Origin: a virus
Taxonomy: Duplodnaviria; Heunggongvirae; Uroviricota; Caudoviricetes
Length of the DNA: 27,845 nt
Virus record (IMG/VR): IMGVR_UViG_2802429221_000019
Coordinates: 1-27,845 of that record
Direction: 5' to 3' (one strand)
Of the stretch, positions 79 to 27,845 are shown in pieces. The translations under genes and the position numbers were made by a program. The notes beneath the pieces were generated by a model, which was not told the DNA's origin, ran no database searches, and was given only the letters and a program-made list of their open reading frames with translations. Numbering within the stretch: the first letter of the stretch is position 1; every line of letters starts with the position of its first letter.

Positions 79-151
79 GCAACGCATCGAACGGCGGCAC
101 TGATTGCCAGACGATAATAAAATCAAGTGATTAGCTGATTGCTTGATGAAT

Positions 152-227
<76 letters not shown>

Positions 228-280
228 GTTTAAAAGACATCGGCTTAAGCGGGTGTCTGGCTGAAAAGCCTGAAGAATTT

Positions 281-354
281 GGCGCGTTAACAAAGCGGTT
301 ATGTAGCGGATTGCAAATCCGTCTAGTCCGGTTCGACTCCGGAACGCGCCTCCA
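281..354 (+). tRNA. cysT: tRNA-Cys (anticodon GCA)
   Basis: 74-nt tRNA: acceptor GGCGCGT/ACGCGCC, anticodon loop TTGCAAA, T-arm GGTTCGACTCC, CCA end. Confidence 0.93.
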
Positions 355-366
355 CTTTTTTCCCGA

Positions 367-453
367 GCCCGGATGGTGGAATCGGTAGACACAAGGGATT
401 TAAAATCCCTCGGCGTTCGCGCTGTGCGGGTTCAAGTCCCGCTCCGGGTACCA
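367..453 (+). tRNA. leuZ: tRNA-Leu (anticodon UAA), class II with long variable arm
   Basis: 87-nt tRNA: acceptor GCCCGGA/TCCGGGT, anticodon stem-loop AGGGA-TTTAAAA-TCCCT, long variable arm, T-arm GGTTCAAGTCC, CCA end. Confidence 0.93.
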
Positions 454-8455: not shown

Positions 8456-8950
8456 ATGGCCATGATGATGATCTACGGCATGTTTGTTTTTGAGTTGCGC
8501 ACATTGCCGCATCAGCAGTTACAGCAAAATAAAAGCTGGCGACATGTGAAAAATGAACGCGTTAACCGTTCAGCAAGCTGGCAGTATATCGGGGCAGGCG
8601 ATGATCGTATTGTTCTTTCTGGTGTGCTTTATCCTGAAATTACAGGTGGCGAAGTGTCGCTGTCGCTGCTGACCACGCAGGCGTATACAGGACGCCCCTG
8701 GCCTCTTATTGATGGCGTCGGGCAGATTTACGGCATGTATGTCCTGACCGAAACGAATACGACCCGTTCCGAGTTTGATCGCTACGGTAAGGCGAAAAAG
8801 ATAGAATTTTCACTGACCCTTGAACGCTGTGATGAGGATTTGCGGGAGCGCCTGCAATCCTCATCGTTCAGCGATATGCTGTCCGGCTTCAAAGATAAGG
8901 TCACATCATCTCTTAACAGCGCGGCCAGCTCCGTTAAAGGGTTGTTTTGA
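8456..8950 (+). CDS. U: tail protein U
   Basis: 164 aa; SD GAGGAG upstream; P2 gpU-like (MxxxGxFVF...LPxQxLQQ..SWRH). Confidence 0.82.
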   Translation: MAMMMIYGMFVFELRTLPHQQLQQNKSWRHVKNERVNRSASWQYIGAGDDRIVLSGVLYPEITGGEVSLSLLTTQAYTGRPWPLIDGVGQIYGMYVLTETNTTRSEFDRYGKAKKIEFSLTLERCDEDLRERLQSSSFSDMLSGFKDKVTSSLNSAASSVKGLF

Positions 8951-8958
8951 CTTAATAC

Positions 8959-8988
8959 AAAACCGCTAATAAACATATTGGCGGTTTT
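8959..8988. terminator. bidirectional hairpin terminator between convergent U and G
   Basis: AAAACCGC ... GCGGTTTT inverted repeat with an inner AATA/TATT helix; A/T runs on both sides. Confidence 0.45.
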
Positions 8989-9009
8989 GTTCCTTAAATC
9001 ATCTTGCCT

Positions 9010-9585
9010 TTACACTAATTCTGGCCATTCGATATCAGGGGCATTTTCCGGCTGAACACGGTTAAGCAATACCCGGTATTTTTTCCATTTTGTCAGACTT
9101 AATTTTTCTTCTTCTGTAGCTATATCCAAATCGACAGCATCCTGCAGCGTGGCAATAATTTCACCTGCATATGCAATCAGCTCTTTCTTCTGAGACTCCG
9201 CCGCTCTGACAAGCGCATCACGTTCTGCATTCTCATCATTCACCCACGCATTTCCGTCCCATTTCTGATAATCCCCCTCCGGGGAAATAGCTGTCACGTC
9301 TGGAGGTAATACGCCAAGTTCAGAAATATAAATGGCTGCTCCTGTTTTCGTTTCGTAGACGGTCTTTCCGCGATGGTCTTCCATCAGTTCCCATTTCATT
9401 TCATCTGCATTGAAAACGGCTGCATAACCAGCAGGAATATCAGGTGGTGCAATATCTGTACTGTTTGCAGGCAGGCCAGTATACGGCGGAATATATGCAT
9501 CACTTTCGCCAATAAACTCATTGGTTCCATTAAGTAAATTGAAAACGCGGATAGTTTGTGCTTCTGCACTCATTCTGAAAGCCAT
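9010..9585 (-). CDS. G: tail fiber assembly protein
   Basis: 191 aa, immediately downstream of tail fiber gene with overlapping stop/start (TAATG); typical Tfa sequence. Confidence 0.8.
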
Positions 9586-12200
9586 TATGCAAGCCTCACA
9601 ATATAGTTAAATGCGATGTTTTTGACGGTGTTTTCGGTATTACCCGTAGCATTTACCGTGATGGTGTGCCCGTGCGCACCTAATGCTACAGTGTGTGCAT
9701 GGGCACCAATACCTACAGTGTGGTTATGCTGACCAATATCCACCGTATGGGCGTGCGCTCCGGCTGTGCTGGACACCTGATTGTTTCCTGAAGCCTGTAC
9801 ACGCTGTTTTCCACCGACAGAGTCGCCGCCATAAACACCACCGACAGTGTGCGTATGATTGCCCGTATTGTTCGTTGATTTTGTGCCATGGTTAAACGTA
9901 CTGACTGTCTTCGTGCCGTAATCAAATGAACTGGTCGTTTTCGTCCCTAAATCCGTATTTGACGCACTGGCGCTGTGAGTATGCGATTTAATCCCGTCCT
10001 GTTCCTGTGACAATACAGCACGTCCACTGGCGGGTTTGCCCTTGATTGTCCAGCCGCGCATATCTGGAATAACACCAGAAGGATAGGCAATAGCCAGTTT
10101 AGGATATGCTGCCTTATCAAACGTCTGCCCCTGCATAATTGCATAGCCTGCAGGTGGTGTATCTGATGGCCACGGCAGCGGAACACCTGGCGGAAACGCT
10201 TCAATATTTGCCGAGCCGTCAAATTTTACGCCGTTAATTGTCCTTGCCGTTTTCAGCTTTGTTGCTGTAGCCGCATTGCCGGACAGTTCGCCTGAAAGAC
10301 CACCGCTGAATGTCTGTTTCGCCGCCCATGTCTGAGCTTCGTCAATAATTGGCACACGTCTTGTCGTGATCGTGCGGCTTCCCGGATTTCCTGAAATACG
10401 CACCATAAAAAAGCGGTAGTTCGCTTTACTTACAGTGCTGCGCCATACATGCATTGAGCGCCCCGTACCGGAATCATCACTCGGACCAACTGCGATGTTT
10501 ATCAGGTTGCCATCAATGACGCCCCAGTCCATACCGTCGGGAATGTTGGTCATGTTATCAAGCCGAACGGTTATCAGACTGCCCGGCACAAAGTCGTAGG
10601 TCTGCCAGTCCAGGCTGGTGAGCTTTGCCACAGCACCGCCGATACCCAGATTCAGGGGAAGTGAATACGAGGTGTAGACTTCCCGCCATTCGCTCCACGA
10701 ACTGCCGGTATAGACGCGCTCAAACGTGCGACCTTTCGTTGTCGTTCCTGTCCCTGTAGTGGTATAGCGTTGCAATACGGCAACGTAATCAAAACGTCTG
10801 ATAACCTCTAACACCCCTATTAGTGTTGCACCAGATGGATCCAGCAATGGACCATTGGTCGCTTTACCCGTCACACTGTAAATACCAGGGTCGGTTAGAT
10901 CATTCAAATCACCGTCATAAAAGCTGCTTGCAGTCTGGCTGCCGATTCTTAGCCATGGTTCCCACTGCGGATTTGATGCATCCCAGTTTGCAGCAAGGCA
11001 GCGGACATACATGTTCCCACGGCGAGTGGTATAACGCTGGGTATAACTGAATCCACCGCCTTTCAGAACTTCAAGCACCCCCTGCGCGTAACTACCAGCT
11101 TCGGGATAGTGCAACGCAAGAGAAGCTAACGTACTGGAACTATTTCTCCATGTACCCAGATTATCCTCTCCGGCCAGAAAATCGAGATCCATGCTATCAT
11201 CCAGCGTTCTGGCCGTCCCCTGAACGTTACGCCATACGCTCCACGGACCATCTTTGCCGTTCCATTTAGCCGTCAGGTGGCGAATATAAGTATTTCCATT
11301 GCGAACGGTGTAACGCTGTGTTCCGTTAAAATTTCCTGCTGCAAATACTTCCAGGACACCAACGGCATTCTCTTCCGGGAAGTGTTTGGCTATCTGTGCA
11401 TTAGTCGAAGTGCCTTTTGACCATGTACCCAGATAAGCTTTAACGGGACCAAATGTATTCAGATCAGCATCAACCGGCATTTCGCCATTGTTTTTCATAA
11501 ACGTCAGGCTGGTAACGCCAACATTGTCCAGAAAAGCGCCCTTATCTGGAATATCGTCACCGTTCTGGTCTTTCTGCAGACGTTTCTCAGCATTGTCATA
11601 GGCTGCTTTTACTGCCTTTGGCGTTGCCGCCAGCTTTTCACTGGTGCTGTTTGTTGCACTGCTTAACTGGGTAAAACCTTTTTCTGTCAGCGTGGCGTCA
11701 GGATGGCGGCGGGACTGCTCATGCTCTGCGATTTTGTCATCGACGTAATCCTGCGTCGCCATCACTGTGCTGGCATCAATACTCAGCTCAACGGATGCCA
11801 CGTTACTGACAATAATGACCATGCGGCAGGTCTGCGCACGTCCGGAGCCTTCAGCCAGTTCAGGCTTATAGCTTTCTGCCATGTTGGCGACCGCAATCAG
11901 TGTTCCGGCATCGTCATACAGACCAAGTTCACGCATCCAGAAGCCGCCCACTTCTGGCGGAACAACCAGTTCAGCCACGATATAGTTTTTATTCTTATTA
12001 TCCACGCTGACTTTATTCAGGGCATGACGCCAGACCTCATGCACCAGCTTCGTCTGACCGGCATCCGGCACCGGCAATTTGCCATTACCGTCACCCACGG
12101 CCATTGCAGACAGGTTTACTTTTTTCCCGCCGGGAACGGTGGCGGCTGCCAGCTTCGCGGCTCCGGCAGTAGTGATAACGGTTTTAAATTTCGTGCTCAT
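9585..12200 (-). CDS. H: tail fiber protein with C-terminal His-x-His repeat receptor-binding region
   Basis: 871 aa; N-terminus [20 protein letters not shown] typical of P2 gpH; C-terminus carries repeated HTV/GAHAHTV motifs. Confidence 0.85.
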
Positions 12201-20616: not shown

Positions 20617-22368
20617 ATGATTCAGGACGCTTTTGTGCGCCAGCGTGCGCGACAACTTTACTGGCAGGGTTATCCGCCCGCTGAAATATCACGTCTGATG
20701 GGAATAAACCCGAACACGATTTATGCGTGGAAAAAACGCGACCAGTGGGATGAAACGCCACCCGTGCAGCGTGTCACGCAGTCCATCGATGCGCGCCTCA
20801 TCCAGCTTACTGAAAAACAGAATAAAACAGGCGGTGACTTTAAGGAAATAGACCTGCTGACCCGGCAGCTTAAAAAACTGCATGATGGCCAGCCGGATGC
20901 GACGGCCACAGGAAAGAAAGGCCGGGCGAAAAAGCTTAAAAATCATTTCACGCCGGAACAGATTGCCGCACTGCGGGAAAAAATCATCAGCAGGCTGGAG
21001 TGGCATCAGCGGGGCTGGTTTGACTCCCTGACCCTTTGCAGGGAAGCCGGGATACGTAACAGGATGATCCTGAAATCCCGACAGATTGGGGCGACCTGGT
21101 ATTTTGCACAGGAAGCACTGCTGATGGCGCTGCGTGACGATGTGGCGCAACCTTACCAGCGTAACCAGATTTTTTTGTCTGCGTCGCGTCGTCAGGCGTT
21201 CCAGTTTAAAAGCATTATTCAGAAGGCTGCATCTGAAGTTGATGTGGAGCTGAAAGGGGGCGATAAAATCATCCTCTCCAACGGCGCAGAACTGCATTTT
21301 CTCGGTACTTCTGCTGCGACGGCACAGTCCTACACAGGCAATTTTTATTTTGATGAATTTTTCTGGGTCAGTCGCTTTGCTGAACTGCGCAAGGTGGCTG
21401 GCGCTATGGCAACCCTCAGCGGGCTGCGACGCACCTACTTCTCCACGCCATCAACCGAAACGCACGAGGCATACGTCTACTGGAACGGCGACCGCTGGAA
21501 CGAGAAAAAGGCCGCGCATAAACGCCAGCGTTTTTCTGTGGACTGGAAAACGCTGCATAACGGGCTTATCTGCCCCGACCGGACGTGGCGGCAAATTGTC
21601 ACGCTGGAAGATGTGGTTAATCACGGCTGGAAACACACCGATATTGATGAAATTCGTGATGAAAACACCGAAGACGAGTTCCGCAATCTCTATATGTGTG
21701 AGTTTGTCCGCGAAGGGGAATCGGCATTTAACCTGAATATCCTGATTGGCTGCGGCGTTGACGGATACGACGACTGGAAAGACTGGAAACCTTTTGCTCC
21801 CCGCCCGATGGGGAATCGTCCGGTATGGATTGGGTATGACGCAAACGGCAGCAGTGGAAACGGCGACAGTGGCGCGGTGTCCGTGGTGGTTCCTCCGGCT
21901 GTTCCTGGTGGCCGTTTTCGAACGGTGGAGACGCGACGCGTTCAGGGGCTGGAGTTTGAAGAACAGGCCAGAGTCATTGAAGAGTTCACGTGTCGCTACA
22001 ACGTGGAACACATCGGCATTGATGTGACGGGCGGGAACGGGGAGGCTGTTTATCAGATAGTGAAACGGTTTTTCCCTGCCGCTATTCCGTACACCTTCAC
22101 GCTGTCATCAAAACGGTCGCTGGTACTGAAAATGCTGCAAATAATGCGTGCCGGGCGGTGGGAATACGATCGCGCCGAACGCGAGCTGGTCGCGGCCTTT
22201 AACGCCGTGCGTAAGGTGAAAACACCGGGCGGCTTTATCACTTACGAAACGGACCGCGCGAGGGGGATCAGCCACGGCGACCTTGCGTGGGCAACCATGC
22301 TTGCTGTCATTAACGAACCAATTGGCGGCGAAGGAGAAAACGAGCGTTTCACGGTTATGGAGTTCTGA
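20617..22368 (+). CDS. P: terminase large (ATPase) subunit
   Basis: 583 aa; SD GGGGGAG upstream; divergent from O as in P2. Confidence 0.9.
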   Translation: MIQDAFVRQRARQLYWQGYPPAEISRLMGINPNTIYAWKKRDQWDETPPVQRVTQSIDARLIQLTEKQNKTGGDFKEIDLLTRQLKKLHDGQPDATATGKKGRAKKLKNHFTPEQIAALREKIISRLEWHQRGWFDSLTLCREAGIRNRMILKSRQIGATWYFAQEALLMALRDDVAQPYQRNQIFLSASRRQAFQFKSIIQKAASEVDVELKGGDKIILSNGAELHFLGTSAATAQSYTGNFYFDEFFWVSRFAELRKVAGAMATLSGLRRTYFSTPSTETHEAYVYWNGDRWNEKKAAHKRQRFSVDWKTLHNGLICPDRTWRQIVTLEDVVNHGWKHTDIDEIRDENTEDEFRNLYMCEFVREGESAFNLNILIGCGVDGYDDWKDWKPFAPRPMGNRPVWIGYDANGSSGNGDSGAVSVVVPPAVPGGRFRTVETRRVQGLEFEEQARVIEEFTCRYNVEHIGIDVTGGNGEAVYQIVKRFFPAAIPYTFTLSSKRSLVLKMLQIMRAGRWEYDRAERELVAAFNAVRKVKTPGGFITYETDRARGISHGDLAWATMLAVINEPIGGEGENERFTVMEF

Positions 22369-23414
22369 TGAGCAGAAAAAATAAAAAAGTGCGCATGAGT
22401 TCACGCATTGATCTCGCTGATGCGCTCAGGAAAGAATCGTCGCTCAGTGCATTCACATTTGATGGTCCTTACCGCCTGACCGGGCATGACCTGCTGGACA
22501 ATATGTACTGTGCTGATAACGGGCGATGGTATGAAACCCCGGTGGACTGGTACGGTCTGGCAAGAGCTGCCCGGCAAACGTCCTGGCATCAGTCTGCGCT
22601 TTACTTTAAGCGTAATGTATTGCTCGGCTGCTATATTCCGCATCCGCTGCTTTCCCGGCAGGATTTCTCGGCGCTGGCGCTGGACTGGTTTGTGTTCGGT
22701 AACGCATTCCTTGAGCTTCGAAGCAATATGCTCGGCGAACCGCTTAAATTACGGCACGCCCTGGCGAAATACATGCGACGCGGAAGCGATCTTGAATCAT
22801 GGTGGTATGTGCAGGATGGCAAGGACGCGTTTCAGTTTCGCCCTGGCAAAGTGTGCCACCTGATGAACCCGGATATTAACCAGGAAATCTACGGCATGCC
22901 GGAATATCTTGGCGCATTACTCTCGGCCAGCCTGTCTCATTCGGCGGACATGTTCAGAAAACTGTACTACGACAATGGATCCCACGCCGGGTGCATCATC
23001 TACATCGGTGCAGCGCAGGTAAACCGCGAAAGCATGGACTCCCTGAAGGAAACGCTACAGGGTGCGCGTGGTGGTGGTGCATTTAAAAACGTGCTCATTC
23101 ACGCGCCAAACGGGGGCAAAGAAGGTGTGCAAATTTTGCCGTTCCAGCAGATCACCGCAAAGGATGAGTTCATGAATGTTAAGGCGGCATCCCGTGATGA
23201 TGTGCTGGCTGCGCACCGCGTTCCGCCGCAACTGATGGGGGCGATGCCGGGCGAAAAAAGTGCGTTTGGTGATGTGGAGAAGGCAGCGCGGGTTTACGCA
23301 ATTAACGAGCTGATGCCCGTCATGGAGGCCATGAAGCACATCAATGACTGGCTTGGCGAAGAGGTGATCCGTTTTAATTCTTATGCTCTTCTTGATGAAA
23401 AAACAGCCCCGTGA
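22368..23414 (+). CDS. Q: portal protein
   Basis: 348 aa; ATG overlaps P stop (TGATG); P2 gpQ-like size and position. Confidence 0.9.
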   Translation: MSRKNKKVRMSSRIDLADALRKESSLSAFTFDGPYRLTGHDLLDNMYCADNGRWYETPVDWYGLARAARQTSWHQSALYFKRNVLLGCYIPHPLLSRQDFSALALDWFVFGNAFLELRSNMLGEPLKLRHALAKYMRRGSDLESWWYVQDGKDAFQFRPGKVCHLMNPDINQEIYGMPEYLGALLSASLSHSADMFRKLYYDNGSHAGCIIYIGAAQVNRESMDSLKETLQGARGGGAFKNVLIHAPNGGKEGVQILPFQQITAKDEFMNVKAASRDDVLAAHRVPPQLMGAMPGEKSAFGDVEKAARVYAINELMPVMEAMKHINDWLGEEVIRFNSYALLDEKTAP

Positions 23415-23430
23415 TGGGGCTGTCCTTTTT
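23403..23430. terminator. bidirectional intrinsic terminator between Q and the convergent 174-aa gene
   Basis: stem ACAGCCCC / GGGGCTGT with 5-nt loop, overlapping the Q stop, followed by CCTTTTT; the complementary strand has a T-run on the other side. Confidence 0.65.
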
Positions 23431-23953
23431 ACCAGAGTTGAACCATTTTCTGTGTGCCGTCAGGCTTGAGATTATCAATTTCAGAGAGAACGTAATATTG
23501 AATGGCTTCACAGACGGTGGTGTATGGTGAATTACCTTCTTTAAGTGGCACGATATTATTATTAACGCGAACCTGTATTTCATCGTTATACATTGCGATC
23601 GAAAGAGGAGTATGCACGAAGGCGACTTCGCCAGGTGTGTCGTCAACCACTGTCTCAATGCTGAAAATCAGTTTTCGCTCATCATTGCCGCCCCTTGCTT
23701 TGGGGGTAGCGGCAGGAATCTGAGATAAAGGCATTCTGCGAAACCCTTCAGCCGTTTCCAGTCCGCATGAAACGTAATGCTGGCGATTACCGTCGCTATC
23801 AGTCCATGTCTGTGATGGCAGCTCCAGAGAGATTTCATAAGCATCAACAATTCCCTGGGCAATGCGTACAAGCGGGGTCAGGTCTTCATTGCGGCGAAAA
23901 CTCTCCTTTACCTGATCTCGTTTTTCTCGTAACTGCTTGTAATTAATGACCAT
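23429..23953 (-). CDS. hypothetical protein, 174 aa, no recognised domain
   Basis: ORF-track frame 23429..23992; start chosen at ATG 23953 (MVINYKQLREKR...) with SD GGAGG 7 nt upstream; ends at the bidirectional terminator; GC content looks lower than the phage core. Confidence 0.5.
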   Translation of the reverse strand: MVINYKQLREKRDQVKESFRRNEDLTPLVRIAQGIVDAYEISLELPSQTWTDSDGNRQHYVSCGLETAEGFRRMPLSQIPAATPKARGGNDERKLIFSIETVVDDTPGEVAFVHTPLSIAMYNDEIQVRVNNNIVPLKEGNSPYTTVCEAIQYYVLSEIDNLKPDGTQKMVQLW

Positions 23954-24358
23954 AAGACAGCCTCCATTGATTTCTTTGCTCGTATTTTGCACTTATGAAG
24001 TGTGGTCGGCAAGGTGCCGCATCACTGACGCGCTTCGCTTGTCTGCTGCTTCGCCGGGGCATAAAAAATTTATGCCCCGACTCTCCAGCTCCCGTATCAA
24101 TCAGATAATTTCACGACGTCTTCCAACTTATCGCCATCATCGACGGCCAGACTCTTACGCAATCCCATCGAGCTGATAGCATGTTCTCGCCGCCTCAGTG
24201 CGATTTTGACGGCCTTACCTTTCACCCCATCAAATCAGAACCCCTTACGTATTTTTCACGCTCAGCGTGAGCGATACAGCCATTCTGTTGTGTCGCTGCG
24301 ACATCGTTCAGGGAATGCTATTTACCCCCTGAAACGCGGGCTGTTCCCCCGTCACCTG

Positions 24359-24382
24359 CGCGCAGAAAAAGCGCGTTTTTTT
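24359..24382 (+). terminator. terminator-like hairpin with U-tract (plus-strand sense) in noncoding region
   Basis: CGCGC - AGAAAAA - GCGCG followed by T7. Confidence 0.35.
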
Positions 24383-24450
24383 GTGCACGCACGGATCCTT
24401 GACGGATCCAGCCGCCATGCGGGCCGGAAGGGCAAAAAGTCGTTCAAAAA

Positions 24451-24480
24451 AATTGTGCAAATTTGTGCACTATTGTGCAA
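24451..24480. repeat. three tandem 10-bp repeats (ATTGTGCAAA / TTTGTGCACT / ATTGTGCAAA)
   Basis: TTGTGCA core at 24453, 24463 and 24473, exactly one helical turn apart, at the boundary of the AT-rich island. Confidence 0.6.
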
Positions 24481-24718
24481 ACCGAACGGAGTGCTTATTT
24501 ATAGAAAAATTGAGCCTATGTATACGACGTTGCTTATAAATACATCCCTGACTGTTATGTGAAAATATGCAAAGAAAATTACATGCTATGGAGATGAGAG
24601 TTATAACGACCTTTTCTACTTATTTGTAAAAGAGGTCGTTATGTAAAAGTTAAATTATTTTTTACTCTTGATATGTGTAAAAAATATAGCTTTGATGTTT
24701 ATATCCTATTAGAATACA

Positions 24719-26416
24719 TTATTTATCCTCTTTAATGATTTTGTTATAGTCAAAATCCCAAATTTTTCTGTCAATGCCGTTTGTTGGTGTAACCCGGTAG
24801 AATAAGGATCGTAATCCATTGTAAAAATACTGGAGAGATTTCTGATTTTCTGGTTTGTCTAACCAGTTTCTTGTAATCATTCTAAAGAATTCAATATGCT
24901 GATTGAATATTTTCTTATTTAATTTTCTTCTTAAACCGGATGTAGACTCATGGTTGTCTTTTCTTTTCTGAATTTCAGTTTCAATTGATTGTAATTGAGG
25001 ACGTATCTTGAGTAAGTATAACTCTTTCGAAAAACCATTGTTAATTATATCCTGATTTTCCCAGAAGGAAGAGTCGTCGGTATTATAAAGGTGCTCACAA
25101 TGCTCAAATATCAATTGTTCTGGAGCTTTTTCACCCGGCAGTGATATAATTCCTCTCTGATCCTCAGGGCTGTGATCTCCATCAAGAATACAAATTGATT
25201 TTAACGAGGTTTCCTTAAGATGAGAATCATTAAAAATAGTTTTTAAATTGTCTGCACCAATGAAACAATCAATTAAGTGAAATGAATTACTAACTATAGC
25301 AAAATTTGGATATTTGCTTATCCAATAACCAAGTATTTCATTAAATAAAAAGCGAGCTTCTTCATCTTCCGTGAAAACTGGTATCTTGTTCCTTGTGTAT
25401 ATCTCATCCTTTGTTTGTGTTTTCAGATACATTGTTATTTTTAATATATCAGGATTATCCAAAAGCAGAGCCTTTGTAATATTGTTAATTAGATAGGCAA
25501 CATGATATTTTTTATGAAAAGCATATTCTAGCAATGTCAGACTGTGCGTTGTGAAAAATACTTGAATCTTATAATCTTTTGCGTATTGATAAATTTTATC
25601 TAATAATCTTATCTGTAAAGAAGGATGTAAAGTGGCATCAAATTCATCTATTAACAGAATGCTTTCTTTTTGATCAGTGGATTGAATAAGTGATTCAAAA
25701 TAATACCTAAGGCTAACTAATGCCTTGATTATAACGAATATATTGTCTTCCCCGGATGATATGGTATTAGAATCAATTGCTGGGTTATCGGTATCAAATA
25801 ATGGGCCAGCTTTAAAATCTCCGATATTGTTTGATTCTATATTTATAATATTAATGCCCAAAAGTTCATTATATATTTTCGATATATAACCAACATACTC
25901 TTCTGGTAGGTTTAACGGAATTTTTGTAAGGGCGTCGTCTTTAGTTTCACCAATTGGGAATAGTCGCGATAATCCAAGATATAAAACTGGTTTAGCTGGA
26001 AGTGATTGTTTTTCTTTTCCGCGTGGGTATACTGGTTTGATAGCATACCGTTGCGCTTCGTCTGGATTTTTTGAGTTGTGCTTTCTGAAGTCTAGTGTGC
26101 TATGATCCAAATAGTTAATAGAAAATAACACACCTTTTGTTCCCTCTGCCGGATCGGTGTAATTTTTTGATTCCCTAACAATTGCTTCCATTTTGGGGTT
26201 GGCTATTTTGTTTATAGATTTTATAACTCTAACACAATTACTATTTGAATAATTTTGTGATCGAGATGGTGGCATTTGGAAACCATTGCTAATTAAATGA
26301 AGCAATGTTGTCTTACATGTCCCATTGGTTCCTGATATTATATTGATGTCTTCATTGAATGAGAAGTCAATATCTATCAGTTTCTTAAATTTTTTAAAAC
26401 TAATTTCTTTAATCAT
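24719..26416 (-). CDS. OLD-family-like ABC ATPase with C-terminal Toprim-like nuclease domain
   Basis: 565 aa; Walker A GTNGTCKTT (aa 29-37), signature-like ISSGE (aa ~219-223), Walker B ILLIDE (aa 253-258), H-loop FFTTHS (aa ~287-292); C-terminal PVFTEDEE (Glu ~350) and ILDGDHS (DxD 412-414) fit a Toprim fold; SD AAGGA 8 nt upstream; very AT-rich. Confidence 0.7.
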   Translation of the reverse strand: MIKEISFKKFKKLIDIDFSFNEDINIISGTNGTCKTTLLHLISNGFQMPPSRSQNYSNSNCVRVIKSINKIANPKMEAIVRESKNYTDPAEGTKGVLFSINYLDHSTLDFRKHNSKNPDEAQRYAIKPVYPRGKEKQSLPAKPVLYLGLSRLFPIGETKDDALTKIPLNLPEEYVGYISKIYNELLGINIINIESNNIGDFKAGPLFDTDNPAIDSNTISSGEDNIFVIIKALVSLRYYFESLIQSTDQKESILLIDEFDATLHPSLQIRLLDKIYQYAKDYKIQVFFTTHSLTLLEYAFHKKYHVAYLINNITKALLLDNPDILKITMYLKTQTKDEIYTRNKIPVFTEDEEARFLFNEILGYWISKYPNFAIVSNSFHLIDCFIGADNLKTIFNDSHLKETSLKSICILDGDHSPEDQRGIISLPGEKAPEQLIFEHCEHLYNTDDSSFWENQDIINNGFSKELYLLKIRPQLQSIETEIQKRKDNHESTSGLRRKLNKKIFNQHIEFFRMITRNWLDKPENQKSLQYFYNGLRSLFYRVTPTNGIDRKIWDFDYNKIIKEDK

Positions 26417-26433
26417 CTATATCATCCTTAAAT

Positions 26434-27279
26434 TTAAATGTCAGGGATTTTTATACCATGATTATAAATGATAATTTCTAGACCTTTTTTCTTATCTTGT
26501 GCAGTATAATTAAGCGTATAATCAGTCATATTGAATTCATGATATATGCTTTTTATTTCAGGCACATTGTCATAAGACACAACCCAAGGTAGTTGAATTT
26601 CCCGTAGTGTATTAGCGATTTTTACATGATCATCATGTTTATAAAAATTTCTATATAACTCTGCTCCTTTAACATAATAAGGTGGATCAAGATATATTAG
26701 ACTATTTTGGGGTAGCAATGCTTTTTGGTGTAGCAGAAAATCTACAGCATCAAAATTCGATACGTAAATTTTCTCCTTATATGCCCCAATTAGTTCAATC
26801 CTTTTAATTAACTCTTTTTTGTTGAATCGTGCATCTAACTTCCATGGTCCTTTTTGTTCTTTCCCTCCAATAACGCCAGCCTTAAGTATTCCTGAACGGT
26901 TTGTTCTATTTAAAAAGAAAGTAGATAATGCGACTTCAAGCATACTATATTTATCATTGTTTAGGAGTATCTCCTTTTGAGTATGCCAATTTTCAATAGT
27001 CACAGGAACTTCATCAATCATTTCACATAACAGATCGTTATGATTAACCACTGCAAACCAAAAAGAATAAAGGGCAGGATCAATATCATTTATGAAGATA
27101 TTTTCAACAAGACCGTTAAGGAGCAAACCTAATGCAACACCGGCTCCACCTGCATAAGGTTCAGCATAACATCCACCAATGAGATCATTGTTGCGGAGTA
27201 TTTGTTCAATATGTGGCAAGAATTTTGCCTTACCTCCCGGATAACGAAGAGGGGTTCTAAAATGAGAAGGCTTTGTCAT
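26434..27279 (-). CDS. Dam-family (D12 class) N6-adenine DNA methyltransferase
   Basis: 281 aa; motifs YPGGK (aa 13-17), EPYAGGAGV (aa 40-48, SAM-binding FxGxG type), DPPY (aa 198-201); 17-nt gap to the downstream OLD-like gene. Confidence 0.85.
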   Translation of the reverse strand: MTKPSHFRTPLRYPGGKAKFLPHIEQILRNNDLIGGCYAEPYAGGAGVALGLLLNGLVENIFINDIDPALYSFWFAVVNHNDLLCEMIDEVPVTIENWHTQKEILLNNDKYSMLEVALSTFFLNRTNRSGILKAGVIGGKEQKGPWKLDARFNKKELIKRIELIGAYKEKIYVSNFDAVDFLLHQKALLPQNSLIYLDPPYYVKGAELYRNFYKHDDHVKIANTLREIQLPWVVSYDNVPEIKSIYHEFNMTDYTLNYTAQDKKKGLEIIIYNHGIKIPDI

Positions 27280-27367
27280 CCACGATTTTCTCAGTAAAAA
27301 ATAAACATAATCTTAACATGGCACTTGAGTTTTCCCGATAAAAAACATCGTCGCCGTCCATAGATAT

Positions 27368-27383
27368 TTGCATAGTTATGCAA
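27368..27383. promoter_or_regulatory. perfect palindrome TTGCATA-GT-TATGCAA, candidate operator in the leader of the methyltransferase operon
   Basis: 16-bp dyad located between the predicted promoter and the methyltransferase start. Confidence 0.35.
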
Positions 27384-27402
27384 AAAATCCAGTTTTCAAT
27401 GA

Positions 27403-27432
27403 ATTAAGGGGAATTATATCAATTGCATTCTA
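27403..27432 (-). promoter_or_regulatory. candidate extended -10 promoter for the methyltransferase/OLD-like operon
   Basis: minus-strand TGATATAAT (27411-27403) with weak -35 TTGTGT (27432-27427, 18-nt spacer). Confidence 0.35.
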
Positions 27433-27464
27433 TTCAACACAATATTCGGTTAGCGATTCACATC

Positions 27465-27845
27465 TCATCCCTCATGATGGAAAAGGCATATCCAACTTTG
27501 TAATTGTTTTTTCTCATCATCATTTTGATTACTAAAGTGCTGTTTGCCTCTCTTTTGGAGCAAAGTAGCCTTGCGGCGGGCGCGTTCAGTGGTTTCATTG
27601 ATTCTTTGTGCGTGCTCTGCGTCACGGATGGCGCGCAGCATGTCAGAAAGCACGGTAACGGGAGTTTTCATGGTGTTCTGGTCCTGCTGAATTGTGGATG
27701 CCAGGCGTGCGGCGGCTTCGGGGTCTGATGCCCCGAGCTGCTCCAGATAGCTGGAGACCGGGTTATGGCGGATCTCCGTGCTGCTTACGCCGTGATTACG
27801 GCTCAGGCGCTGCCAGAGCTGCGTGATTCGGCTGTCCGGGCGGGT
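27465..27845 (-). CDS. phage early-region protein, C-terminal part (5' end outside window)
   Basis: frame is open from the window edge (hand translation ...TRPDSRITQLWQRLSRNHGVSSTEIRH...) to the stop at 27465; function not recognised; last ~30 codons are AT-rich. Confidence 0.55.
   Translation of the reverse strand, partial: TRPDSRITQLWQRLSRNHGVSSTEIRHNPVSSYLEQLGASDPEAAARLASTIQQDQNTMKTPVTVLSDMLRAIRDAEHAQRINETTERARRKATLLQKRGKQHFSNQNDDEKKQLQSWICLFHHEG

Follow-up and report, generated by a model that had tools for sequence, protein, structure and literature searches.

A D12-class DNA methyltransferase in the defence hotspot of a P2-like prophage is paired with an OLD-like ATPase-Toprim protein and may belong to a restriction-modification-like module

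What does a DNA methyltransferase do among the cargo genes of a prophage? The question is raised by a 27,845-nucleotide stretch of Caudoviricetes DNA (positions 1 to 27,845 of IMG/VR record IMGVR_UViG_2802429221_000019; the window), in which an earlier sequence-only reading had noticed a gene for a Dam-like methylase, brought in together with a neighbouring nuclease gene and possibly serving in self-protection for that nuclease, in anti-restriction or in epigenetic control. Our analysis points to a two-gene, restriction-modification-like (R-M-like) anti-phage module, in which the methylase would be the modification component and an OLD-like effector encoded next to it would be checked by methylation. 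We judge the chances that this reading is right to be about even. Among the roles considered it is the best supported, because the pairing of the two genes is nearly obligate, their junction is that of an operon, the methylase may be solitary while the effector is not, the locus is a defence hotspot and a homologous system has been validated.

We asked first what the gene encodes. Its open reading frame (ORF) coincides exactly with the interval proposed before, on the minus strand, and starts with ATG in the ORF list of the window (Table 1). The product is a real D12-class (alpha-group) DNA methyltransferase with intact catalytic motifs. Pfam PF02086 (MethyltransfD12) matches it with E=1.3e-20 and 74.6 bits (cut-off 22), and the alignment pairs residues 13–253 with profile positions 1–246 of 253. 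The catalytic DPPY occupies residues 198–201, about 156 residues after the S-adenosylmethionine (AdoMet) loop, so both DPPY and the spacing had been described correctly. The FxGxG motif, on the other hand, is not there literally: the regular expression [FYW]xGxG has no match in the protein, and a glycine-rich variant, EPYAGGAG (residues 40–47), takes its place. The motif order of the D12 class is kept, and both motifs are invariant or nearly so in 28 relatives, across which R12, P14, G15-G16-K17, E40, G44-G45, N64-D65 and D198-P-P-Y201 do not vary. We would expect the methylase to be active in this strain.

The PADLOC model PD-Lambda-5_B (PDLC04018) matches the protein far beyond chance (E=8.7e-122, 403.9 bits), and the Type II methylase model MTase_II matches it at 9.1e-108. 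The same family provides the modification enzyme of PD-λ-5, a system whose defence activity has been validated. To call the enzyme unknown therefore overlooks both its family, already listed as component B of PD-λ-5, and its locus, a known defence hotspot of P2.

Is the enzyme a Dam methylase? It shares the Pfam family D12, the motif order and a similar size with Dam, DpnM and T4 Dam, the GATC-specific N6-adenine methylases described by TIGR00571. Membership in class D12 stands, but the label Dam-like is narrower than the family: NCBIfam TIGR00571 (dam) gives 70.4 bits, under its cut-off of 114.85, and a single-sequence phmmer search of all PDB chains at E<=10 returned 7M6B (M.CbeI, 1.5e-17) as the sole match, with no Dam enzyme even at that threshold. 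A profile of 28 family members reached M.CbeI (7M6B) in PDB at 4.5e-29 and DpnM only at 2.9e-09; E. coli Dam and T4 Dam lay beyond its reach. These scores and the foreign base composition given below rule out host dam, as had been concluded from codon composition, and also a Dam orthologue. Physiology points in the same direction. Dam methylation is tolerated without deletion of the mrr region. Unlike Dam, the PD-λ-5 homologue of the window methylase required a host deleted for the mrr region for its cloning (PMC9519451), from which it follows that the PD-λ-5 methylase is active and that its mark, not tolerated by the methylation-dependent restriction of K-12, is not of the Dam type.

The closest solved relative, M.CbeI of Caldicellulosiruptor bescii (7M6B), aligns with the methylase over nearly its full length, and the two have in common an N-terminal RYPGGK, the EP-x-x-GG AdoMet loop, LNR..SG and DPPYY. 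Since the alignment is divergent and the hairpin/target-recognition stretch differs, the specificity of M.CbeI is not transferable to the window enzyme, nor did we find a text on a methylome that would reveal its recognition sequence. M.CbeI has DPPY and was annotated as a D12 adenine methylase, yet experimentally it makes N4-methylcytosine (m4C) in GGCC (PMC3425538; structure note PMC8616854); it is grouped with DmtB among the alpha-class N4-cytosine methylases for GGCC, and its partner is a conventional Type II enzyme, CbeI (PMC3425538). With an m4C enzyme as the closest solved relative, neither GATC nor adenine is to be assumed as the target, and because the mark may be m4C, the checks suggested in the earlier reading, digestion with DpnI, DpnII or MboI and a search for new N6-methyladenine (m6A) motifs, could give a false negative. 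The same caution applies to methylomes: m6A is not safely assumed for 'Dam-like' D12 methylases with DPPY. As to GATC itself, 12 sites occur in the 2.56-kb AT-rich module at 24719–27279 (4.7 per kb; about 7.6 expected from base composition) and 57 in positions 1–24000 (2.4 per kb; about 93 expected), which is a modest difference.

We next turned to the neighbour, which the sequence-only reading had called a nuclease gene. What we find is an ABC ATPase followed by a Toprim-like C-terminal domain, the putative nuclease. Its N-terminal ~330 residues match Pfam AAA_15, AAA_21 and SMC_N, and in PADLOC the protein matches ATPase-Toprim_I-B, PtuA, AriA and GajA, all at about 1e-15. The ATPase head has a Walker A motif (G29-x-N-G-x-C-K35-T), a signature-like S220-x-G-E-D-N, a Walker B motif (L-L-I-D257-E258) and an H-loop histidine (H291); the Walker A Lys, the signature-like SxGE, the Walker B DE and the H-loop His are invariant in 34 homologues of the ATPase. 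In the Toprim-like domain the invariant acidic residues are E350, D351, E353 and D412-G-D414. A Pfam search with the C-terminal domain alone yielded nothing beyond a chance-level match to DUF1351. The family of this domain is compact, with 156 clusters (50% identity) in 1.84 billion proteins, and nearly all of its full-length members have 520–625 residues; the PHROGs family of the whole protein, phrog_3940, is listed as function unknown. With moderate confidence in the fold assignment, we regard the partner as a probable OLD-like ATPase-Toprim protein.

For comparison we used the OLD family in the form of P2 Old (Class 1), GajA of Gabija (Class 2), retron-linked OLD (Class 3) and AriA/AriB of PARIS. 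The partner resembles these proteins in its N-terminal ABC ATPase, followed by a probable Toprim domain and a helical domain, and in conserved acidic residues of the Toprim-like part. In addition, its gene takes the place in the hotspot that old takes in P2. However, only around Walker B and the H-loop does the partner resemble P2 Old in sequence (BLASTP E=0.011 over 63 residues; hhalign probability 75%), and orthology between the two is rejected on that ground. Moreover, the OLD classes covered by a review and a survey (single-gene, helicase-linked and retron-linked, with PARIS placed elsewhere) have no methyltransferase coupling (PMC10568477; 10.1101/2024.10.26.620412), whereas for the partner it is nearly obligate.

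The two genes are arranged as an operon, read as such because the methylase stop and the ATPase start are only 17 nt apart and AAGGA, a ribosome-binding site, precedes the latter. They also share an AT-rich composition that sets them apart from their surroundings. GC content is 0.34 in the methylase gene and 0.32 in the partner gene, against 0.54 in the rest of the window, and GC at third codon positions is 0.23 and 0.27, against 0.60 in the terminase and portal genes. The earlier view that the methylase gene is as AT-rich as its neighbour and was acquired together with it is thereby borne out.

The location is equally telling. In an annotated E. coli copy of the locus (L001, 99.5% identical and used for mapping the neighbours), the pair is flanked by P2-type terminase, portal and replication endonuclease genes. 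The interval between gpA and the portal gene is P2 defence hotspot #1 (Rousset et al. PMC9122126; Vassallo et al. PMC9519451), occupied by old and tin in phage P2 itself, and the occupants of this hotspot tested so far are defence genes (PMC9519451, PMC9122126). The methylase is AT-rich prophage cargo in this hotspot; that it is prophage cargo, as the sequence-only reading held, is evident from the P2-type flanking genes together with host transfer RNA (tRNA) genes near the window start. Of 5426 complete E. coli genomes, 15 carry the 3.4-kb stretch with both AT-rich genes, 14 of them at 99.2–99.5% identity and one at 97.7%. The carriers, FDAARGOS_1285, E110019 and TW10598 among them, were isolated from human, pig, dog and seawater, and the two genes bear no annotation there beyond 'DNA adenine methylase' and 'AAA family ATPase'. 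If the proposed function is correct, these genomes and many other phyla carry a defence module that is not being counted.

How tight is the linkage of the two genes outside this prophage? Using the ATPase alone as query, we fetched 80 loci from one-genome-per-species contigs. The methylase family is encoded in 74 of the 80, and at a distance of no more than 300 bp in 67. Five of the six loci lacking it have merely 0–111 bp left past the 3′ end of the ATPase gene, the usual methylase position; in the sixth (L079) the ATPase gene is 5′-truncated at the contig start and the 5 kb downstream carry no methylase. The tight co-occurrence extends across phyla: the loci come from Enterobacterales, Clostridia, Bacilli, Negativicutes, Actinomycetota, Collinsella, Neisseria, Haemophilus, Campylobacterota, Sulfurovum, Spirochaetota, Brachyspira, Planctomycetota and an archaeon, a methanogen. 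Of the three roles offered earlier, self-protection for the linked nuclease is favoured by this result, whereas anti-restriction and epigenetic control are disfavoured.

Viral contigs fetched through the methylase gave a complementary picture, its neighbours there being PD-Lambda-5_A, ATPases that match the family profile over nearly the whole of its length, or both; some of these ATPases are close relatives of the window ATPase and some are divergent. Among 142 classified loci, a pool biased toward the ATPase since 80 were fetched with it, about 72 have ATPase and methylase, about 36 PD-Lambda-5_A and methylase, 19 all three genes and 11 the methylase alone. The relationship is asymmetric, as expected of R-M pairs: the methylase stands without a detected effector in 11/142 loci, and the ATPase essentially never stands without the methylase. 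As is generic for R-M systems, the genes are adjacent and co-inherited and the putative nuclease is essentially not seen without the methylase. Distant relatives of the methylase in cyanophages and giant-virus contigs stand without a partner. Directly upstream of the methylase, some viral contigs (L092–L098, L101–L103, L106, L116, L121, L130, L133, L137, L143, L144 and L146) encode ATPases of another, divergent group (500–600 residues); they match the window ATPase family profile at only ~1e-40, most of the alignments reaching well into the C-terminal region. The methylase–ATPase association is thus older and broader than the close family.

The validated relative deserves closer comparison. 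Found in E. coli ECOR7, PD-λ-5 acted on nine phages out of ten (Vassallo et al. 2022, PMC9519451). In other E. coli strains, a PD-λ-5-type locus in the P2 hotspot encodes a 501-residue protein followed by a 294-residue methylase, and its length of 2460 bp is 1 bp short of the published ECOR7 insert (2461 bp); PADLOC recognizes the former protein as PD-Lambda-5_A (6.9e-168) and the latter as PD-Lambda-5_B (7.9e-122, 404.1 bits). The window methylase is 52% identical to the methylase of this locus and 49% identical to a lambdoid-prophage version adjoining a ParB/Srx protein that is also PD-Lambda-5_A. The window locus and PD-λ-5 thus have the same methylase family (403.9 and 404.1 bits, respectively), the same P2 hotspot and the same format of two-gene AT-rich cargo. 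They differ in the partner, which in PD-λ-5 is PD-Lambda-5_A, a ParB/HEPN protein of ~500 residues with no ATPase, and in the window is the 565-residue ABC ATPase-Toprim protein. Gene order differs too, effector before methylase in PD-λ-5 and methylase before effector in the window. PD-Lambda-5_A is absent from the best 25 PADLOC matches of the window partner, and a hidden Markov model built from four PD-Lambda-5_A proteins found no such ORF adjoining the window methylase, so that the window was classed as 'OLD1' and not as 'BOTH'. With a partner that is not PD-Lambda-5_A, the locus is not PD-λ-5 itself, and since PD-Lambda-5_B matches in the absence of PD-Lambda-5_A, two-component annotation should not call PD-λ-5 at such loci.

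PD-λ-5-type pairs also occur in settings other than phages. One (L086) lies in a conjugative-transfer (tra) cluster of Pseudomonas type, and three (L087–L089) lie in an integrase-bounded island adjoining yicC in Pectobacterium; their methylases are 58–60% identical to that of the window. Phages are thus one among several kinds of mobile element that carry the methylase.

Methylases about 50–60% identical to that of the window are coupled elsewhere to the unrelated effector PD-Lambda-5_A (ParB/HEPN) or to both effectors. Identity to the window methylase is alike for the two partner classes (60% and 58% for PD-Lambda-5_A-linked enzymes, 57% for ATPase-linked ones), from which it follows that a single methylase scaffold has changed partners repeatedly. 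In two three-gene loci of Pantoea (L007 and L008) the order is PD-Lambda-5_A, methylase, ATPase; apart from a 71%-identical contig binned as Clostridium (L006), these loci hold the closest relatives of the window ATPase in the sampled genomes. Three-gene loci occur in several gene orders (L007, 2479–6683; L008, 2545–6686; L018, L020–L023, L028, L030, L048, L067–L069, L071, L076, L080, L081, L099 and L118). They have the appearance of an 'RM plus Abi' design (Abi, abortive infection) before compaction, PD-λ-5 and the window pair being apparently two different reductions of it. If the pair works as proposed below, such a three-gene ancestor (methylase, ParB/HEPN effector and OLD-like ATPase) would provide a mechanistic handle on 'RM plus Abi'.

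How might such a pair work? In the R-M-like mechanism that we propose, the methylase, translated first, would mark a short sequence on the lysogen chromosome and on the prophage with m6A or m4C. The OLD-type ABC ATPase-Toprim protein with its helical domain would then attack DNA that lacks the mark, namely incoming phage DNA. The nuclease would accordingly have to be sensitive to methylation, the two proteins may form a physical complex, and the pair would act in defence. In Type III systems an ATP-dependent nuclease subunit, Res, owes its target recognition to the methylase, Mod. By analogy, the window methylase may be a shared specificity 'hub' to which effectors are keyed; partner swapping suggests that any effector found with it relies on it for recognizing the target or for a surface to dock on. 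Unlike Type III systems, the window pair has no helicase-type Res subunit.

A wider proposal goes further and is correspondingly more tentative. The locus could exemplify a widespread unnamed R-M class, in which an ATP-driven OLD-type Toprim restriction subunit would take its specificity from a small D12 'hub' methylase able to serve different effectors, be it the OLD-like ATPase-Toprim protein, the ParB/HEPN protein PD-Lambda-5_A or the two together; m4C, and not m6A, may be the mark. We consider this possible, although we would not favour it. To our knowledge, Toprim is not among the known catalytic folds of restriction endonucleases (PD-(D/E)XK, HNH, GIY-YIG, PLD and half-pipe). If the R-M-like reading is correct, it would add a methylation-coupled branch to an OLD family that so far consists of solitary, helicase-linked, retron-linked and PARIS-type members.

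Several observations weigh against an R-M-like role. We know of no characterised OLD-type effector that reads methylation. Those characterised are abortive tRNases (P2 Old, bioRxiv 10.64898/2026.07.10.737580; AriB of PARIS, PMC11464382) or, in the case of GajA, a nucleotide-gated nickase (PMC8136825). The protection given by PD-λ-5 is strongest for T-even phages, which have hypermodified DNA, and this is unusual for classical R-M (PMC9519451). The methylase tree is intermixed by partner, the nearest relatives of the window enzyme being PD-Lambda-5_A-linked, which is awkward if two unrelated nucleases each read the same site independently. Since both effectors accompany the methylase in 19 loci, the OLD-like protein could instead be a backup (Abi) layer. 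Finally, the case for the window pair itself is a comparative one.

Such considerations lead to the strongest competitor, a guard or Abi module, which we nevertheless think doubtful. Here the OLD-type ATPase would monitor the methylase, the methylation state or a phage anti-restriction factor (a DNA mimic or an S-adenosylmethionine (SAM) hydrolase); once triggered, the Toprim nuclease would hit host tRNA or DNA and the infected cell would die, leaving to the methylase the part of bait, sensor or toxin silencer and not that of a classical modification enzyme. There are precedents, as AriA of PARIS senses Ocr and releases a tRNase (PMC11464382) and P2 Old, mentioned above, is reported to be an abortive tRNase (bioRxiv 10.64898/2026.07.10.737580), although it is by analogy with these two that the sensing step is supported. 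The three-gene loci, those of Pantoea included, fit the 'RM plus Abi' design, for which 'compacted RM+Abi' is the phrase used in PMC9519451; on this view PD-λ-5 kept the ParB/HEPN effector and the window kept the OLD-like one. Free swapping of partners would also come more readily to effectors that dock on the methylase than to effectors that each read a DNA sequence. Yet the two-gene form is by far the commonest among ATPase-fetched loci (~72/142 classified), implying that the pair is self-sufficient, and DPPY, invariant in 28/28 aligned methylases, suggests that methylation itself matters.

Could the module primarily be an addiction device? Post-segregational killing is a known behaviour of Type II R-M pairs: with a stable nuclease and a mark that is diluted out, loss of the prophage would be lethal and defence would be a by-product. 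The module does reside on mobile elements (here a P2-like prophage, elsewhere viral contigs and integrative islands), and the ATPase is not seen without the methylase in the 80 ATPase loci bar the six exceptions, five of which have almost no flanking sequence. However, the tested occupants of the hotspot are defence genes (PMC9519451, PMC9122126) and the homologous PD-λ-5 defends from a plasmid, which makes this explanation unlikely as the main one; an addiction role would in any case be compatible with both the R-M-like and the guard reading. Least probable is a stand-alone phage methylase unrelated to its neighbour, acting in anti-restriction at the entry of a P2-like genome or in epigenetic regulation: orphan D12 methylases are found in many phages, the distant relatives in cyanophages and giant-virus contigs are partnerless and 11/142 classified loci have no effector, but it is contradicted by an operon junction of only 17 nt, by a foreign composition common to both genes and by co-occurrence in 74/80 ATPase loci across phyla, and the gene lies in the lysogenic-conversion hotspot and not in the P2 early or late regions, from which an anti-restriction function would be expressed on entry.

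Among described systems, Menshen (NsnABC), often encoded beside methylases, unites an OLD-ABC ATPase with ParB-like proteins of the DUF262 type (PMC12065111), a mix resembled by the three-gene relatives with PD-Lambda-5_A, OLD-like ATPase and methylase. The window pair differs from Menshen in that the NsnB model covers the ATPase head only (5.2e-13, residues 1–296) and DUF3696, NsnA and NsnC are absent. The pairing is found neither in a review of OLD classes (PMC10568477) nor in a 2024 survey of eight OLD-containing systems (10.1101/2024.10.26.620412), and the main text of Rousset et al. 2022 makes no mention of any methylase in the P2 hotspot. Among the models of PADLOC v2 the pairing is likewise absent; the methylase by itself is of a known family, and its pairing with an OLD-type ATPase-Toprim protein appears to be unnamed. 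A targeted literature search, the scope of which lay outside Krishnan et al. 2020 (NAR 48:10045), found no description of it; that work reportedly treats ABC-ATPase-anchored R-M-like systems, according to a later paper, and may mention this neighbourhood.

Table 1. Positions of the methylase–ATPase pair, its parts and the borders of the hotspot within the window
Feature	Position	Strand	Basis or remark
D12-class (alpha-group) DNA methyltransferase gene, PD-Lambda-5_B family, 281 amino acids	26434..27279	-	ORF, Pfam, PADLOC
Hairpin/target-recognition stretch of the methylase, FFLNRTNRSGILKAGVIGG..Q.G	residues ~121-144		Strongly conserved in the family alignment
Methylase–ATPase spacer, 17 nt	26417..26433	-	From methylase stop TAA to ATPase ATG; contains AAGGA
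Partner ATPase gene, 565 amino acids	24719..26416	-	17 nt downstream of the methylase
N-terminal ABC/OLD-type ATPase head, residues 1-~334	25415..26416	-	
C-terminal Toprim-like domain and helical bundle, residues 335-565, putative nuclease	24722..25414	-	
Intergenic stretch, expected promoter site of the two-gene operon	27280..27464	-	Sequence
P2-type replication endonuclease gene (gpA), 3′ end, hotspot border	27465..27845	-	Cut by the window end; mapped from L001
P2-type portal gene (gpQ), other hotspot border	22368..23414	+	ORF; annotated in L001 and in 397 E. coli genomes

A scan for consensus promoters over 24000–27845 gave 13 sites, compared with 14.7 in shuffled sequences, and none was convincing in the intergenic stretch ahead of the methylase gene. 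On the other side of the pair, an ORF of 187 residues at 23429–23992 (minus strand) adjoins the portal gene. It belongs to phrog_5091 (unknown function; 8.4e-66), and searches of Pfam, NCBIfam and PADLOC gave no match for it. The stretch 23380–24720 that includes it is covered to at least 80% in 397 E. coli genomes. Between the portal and ATPase genes the window is about 614 bp longer than L001, which matches the size of this ORF, and the ORF thus appears to be a variable hotspot gene in its own right. In the non-coding DNA between it and the ATPase gene, two terminator-like hairpins face each other, at 24358–24376 (plus strand) and 24470–24455 (minus strand). Since cosR adjoins old in P2, a cos site would by analogy be expected in this stretch.

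At the start of the window lies host chromosome, with tRNA genes Gly-GCC, Cys-GCA and Leu-TAA in a row at 152–453 (plus strand), which we take to be the E. coli glyW-cysT-leuZ cluster. Rfam and tRNA scans of the window detected these three host tRNAs only, far from the methylase locus. As the cluster marks host chromosome, the prophage end or attachment site should be just to its right, and a stretch of low GC at 1–1500 (0.42–0.44) overlaps this host–prophage junction. A dip in GC, to 0.46–0.47 at 8500–10000 within a late region of 0.52–0.60, coincides with ORFs at 9010–9585 and 9585–12200 (both on the minus strand) and may correspond to the tail-fibre or second-hotspot region of P2-like phages.

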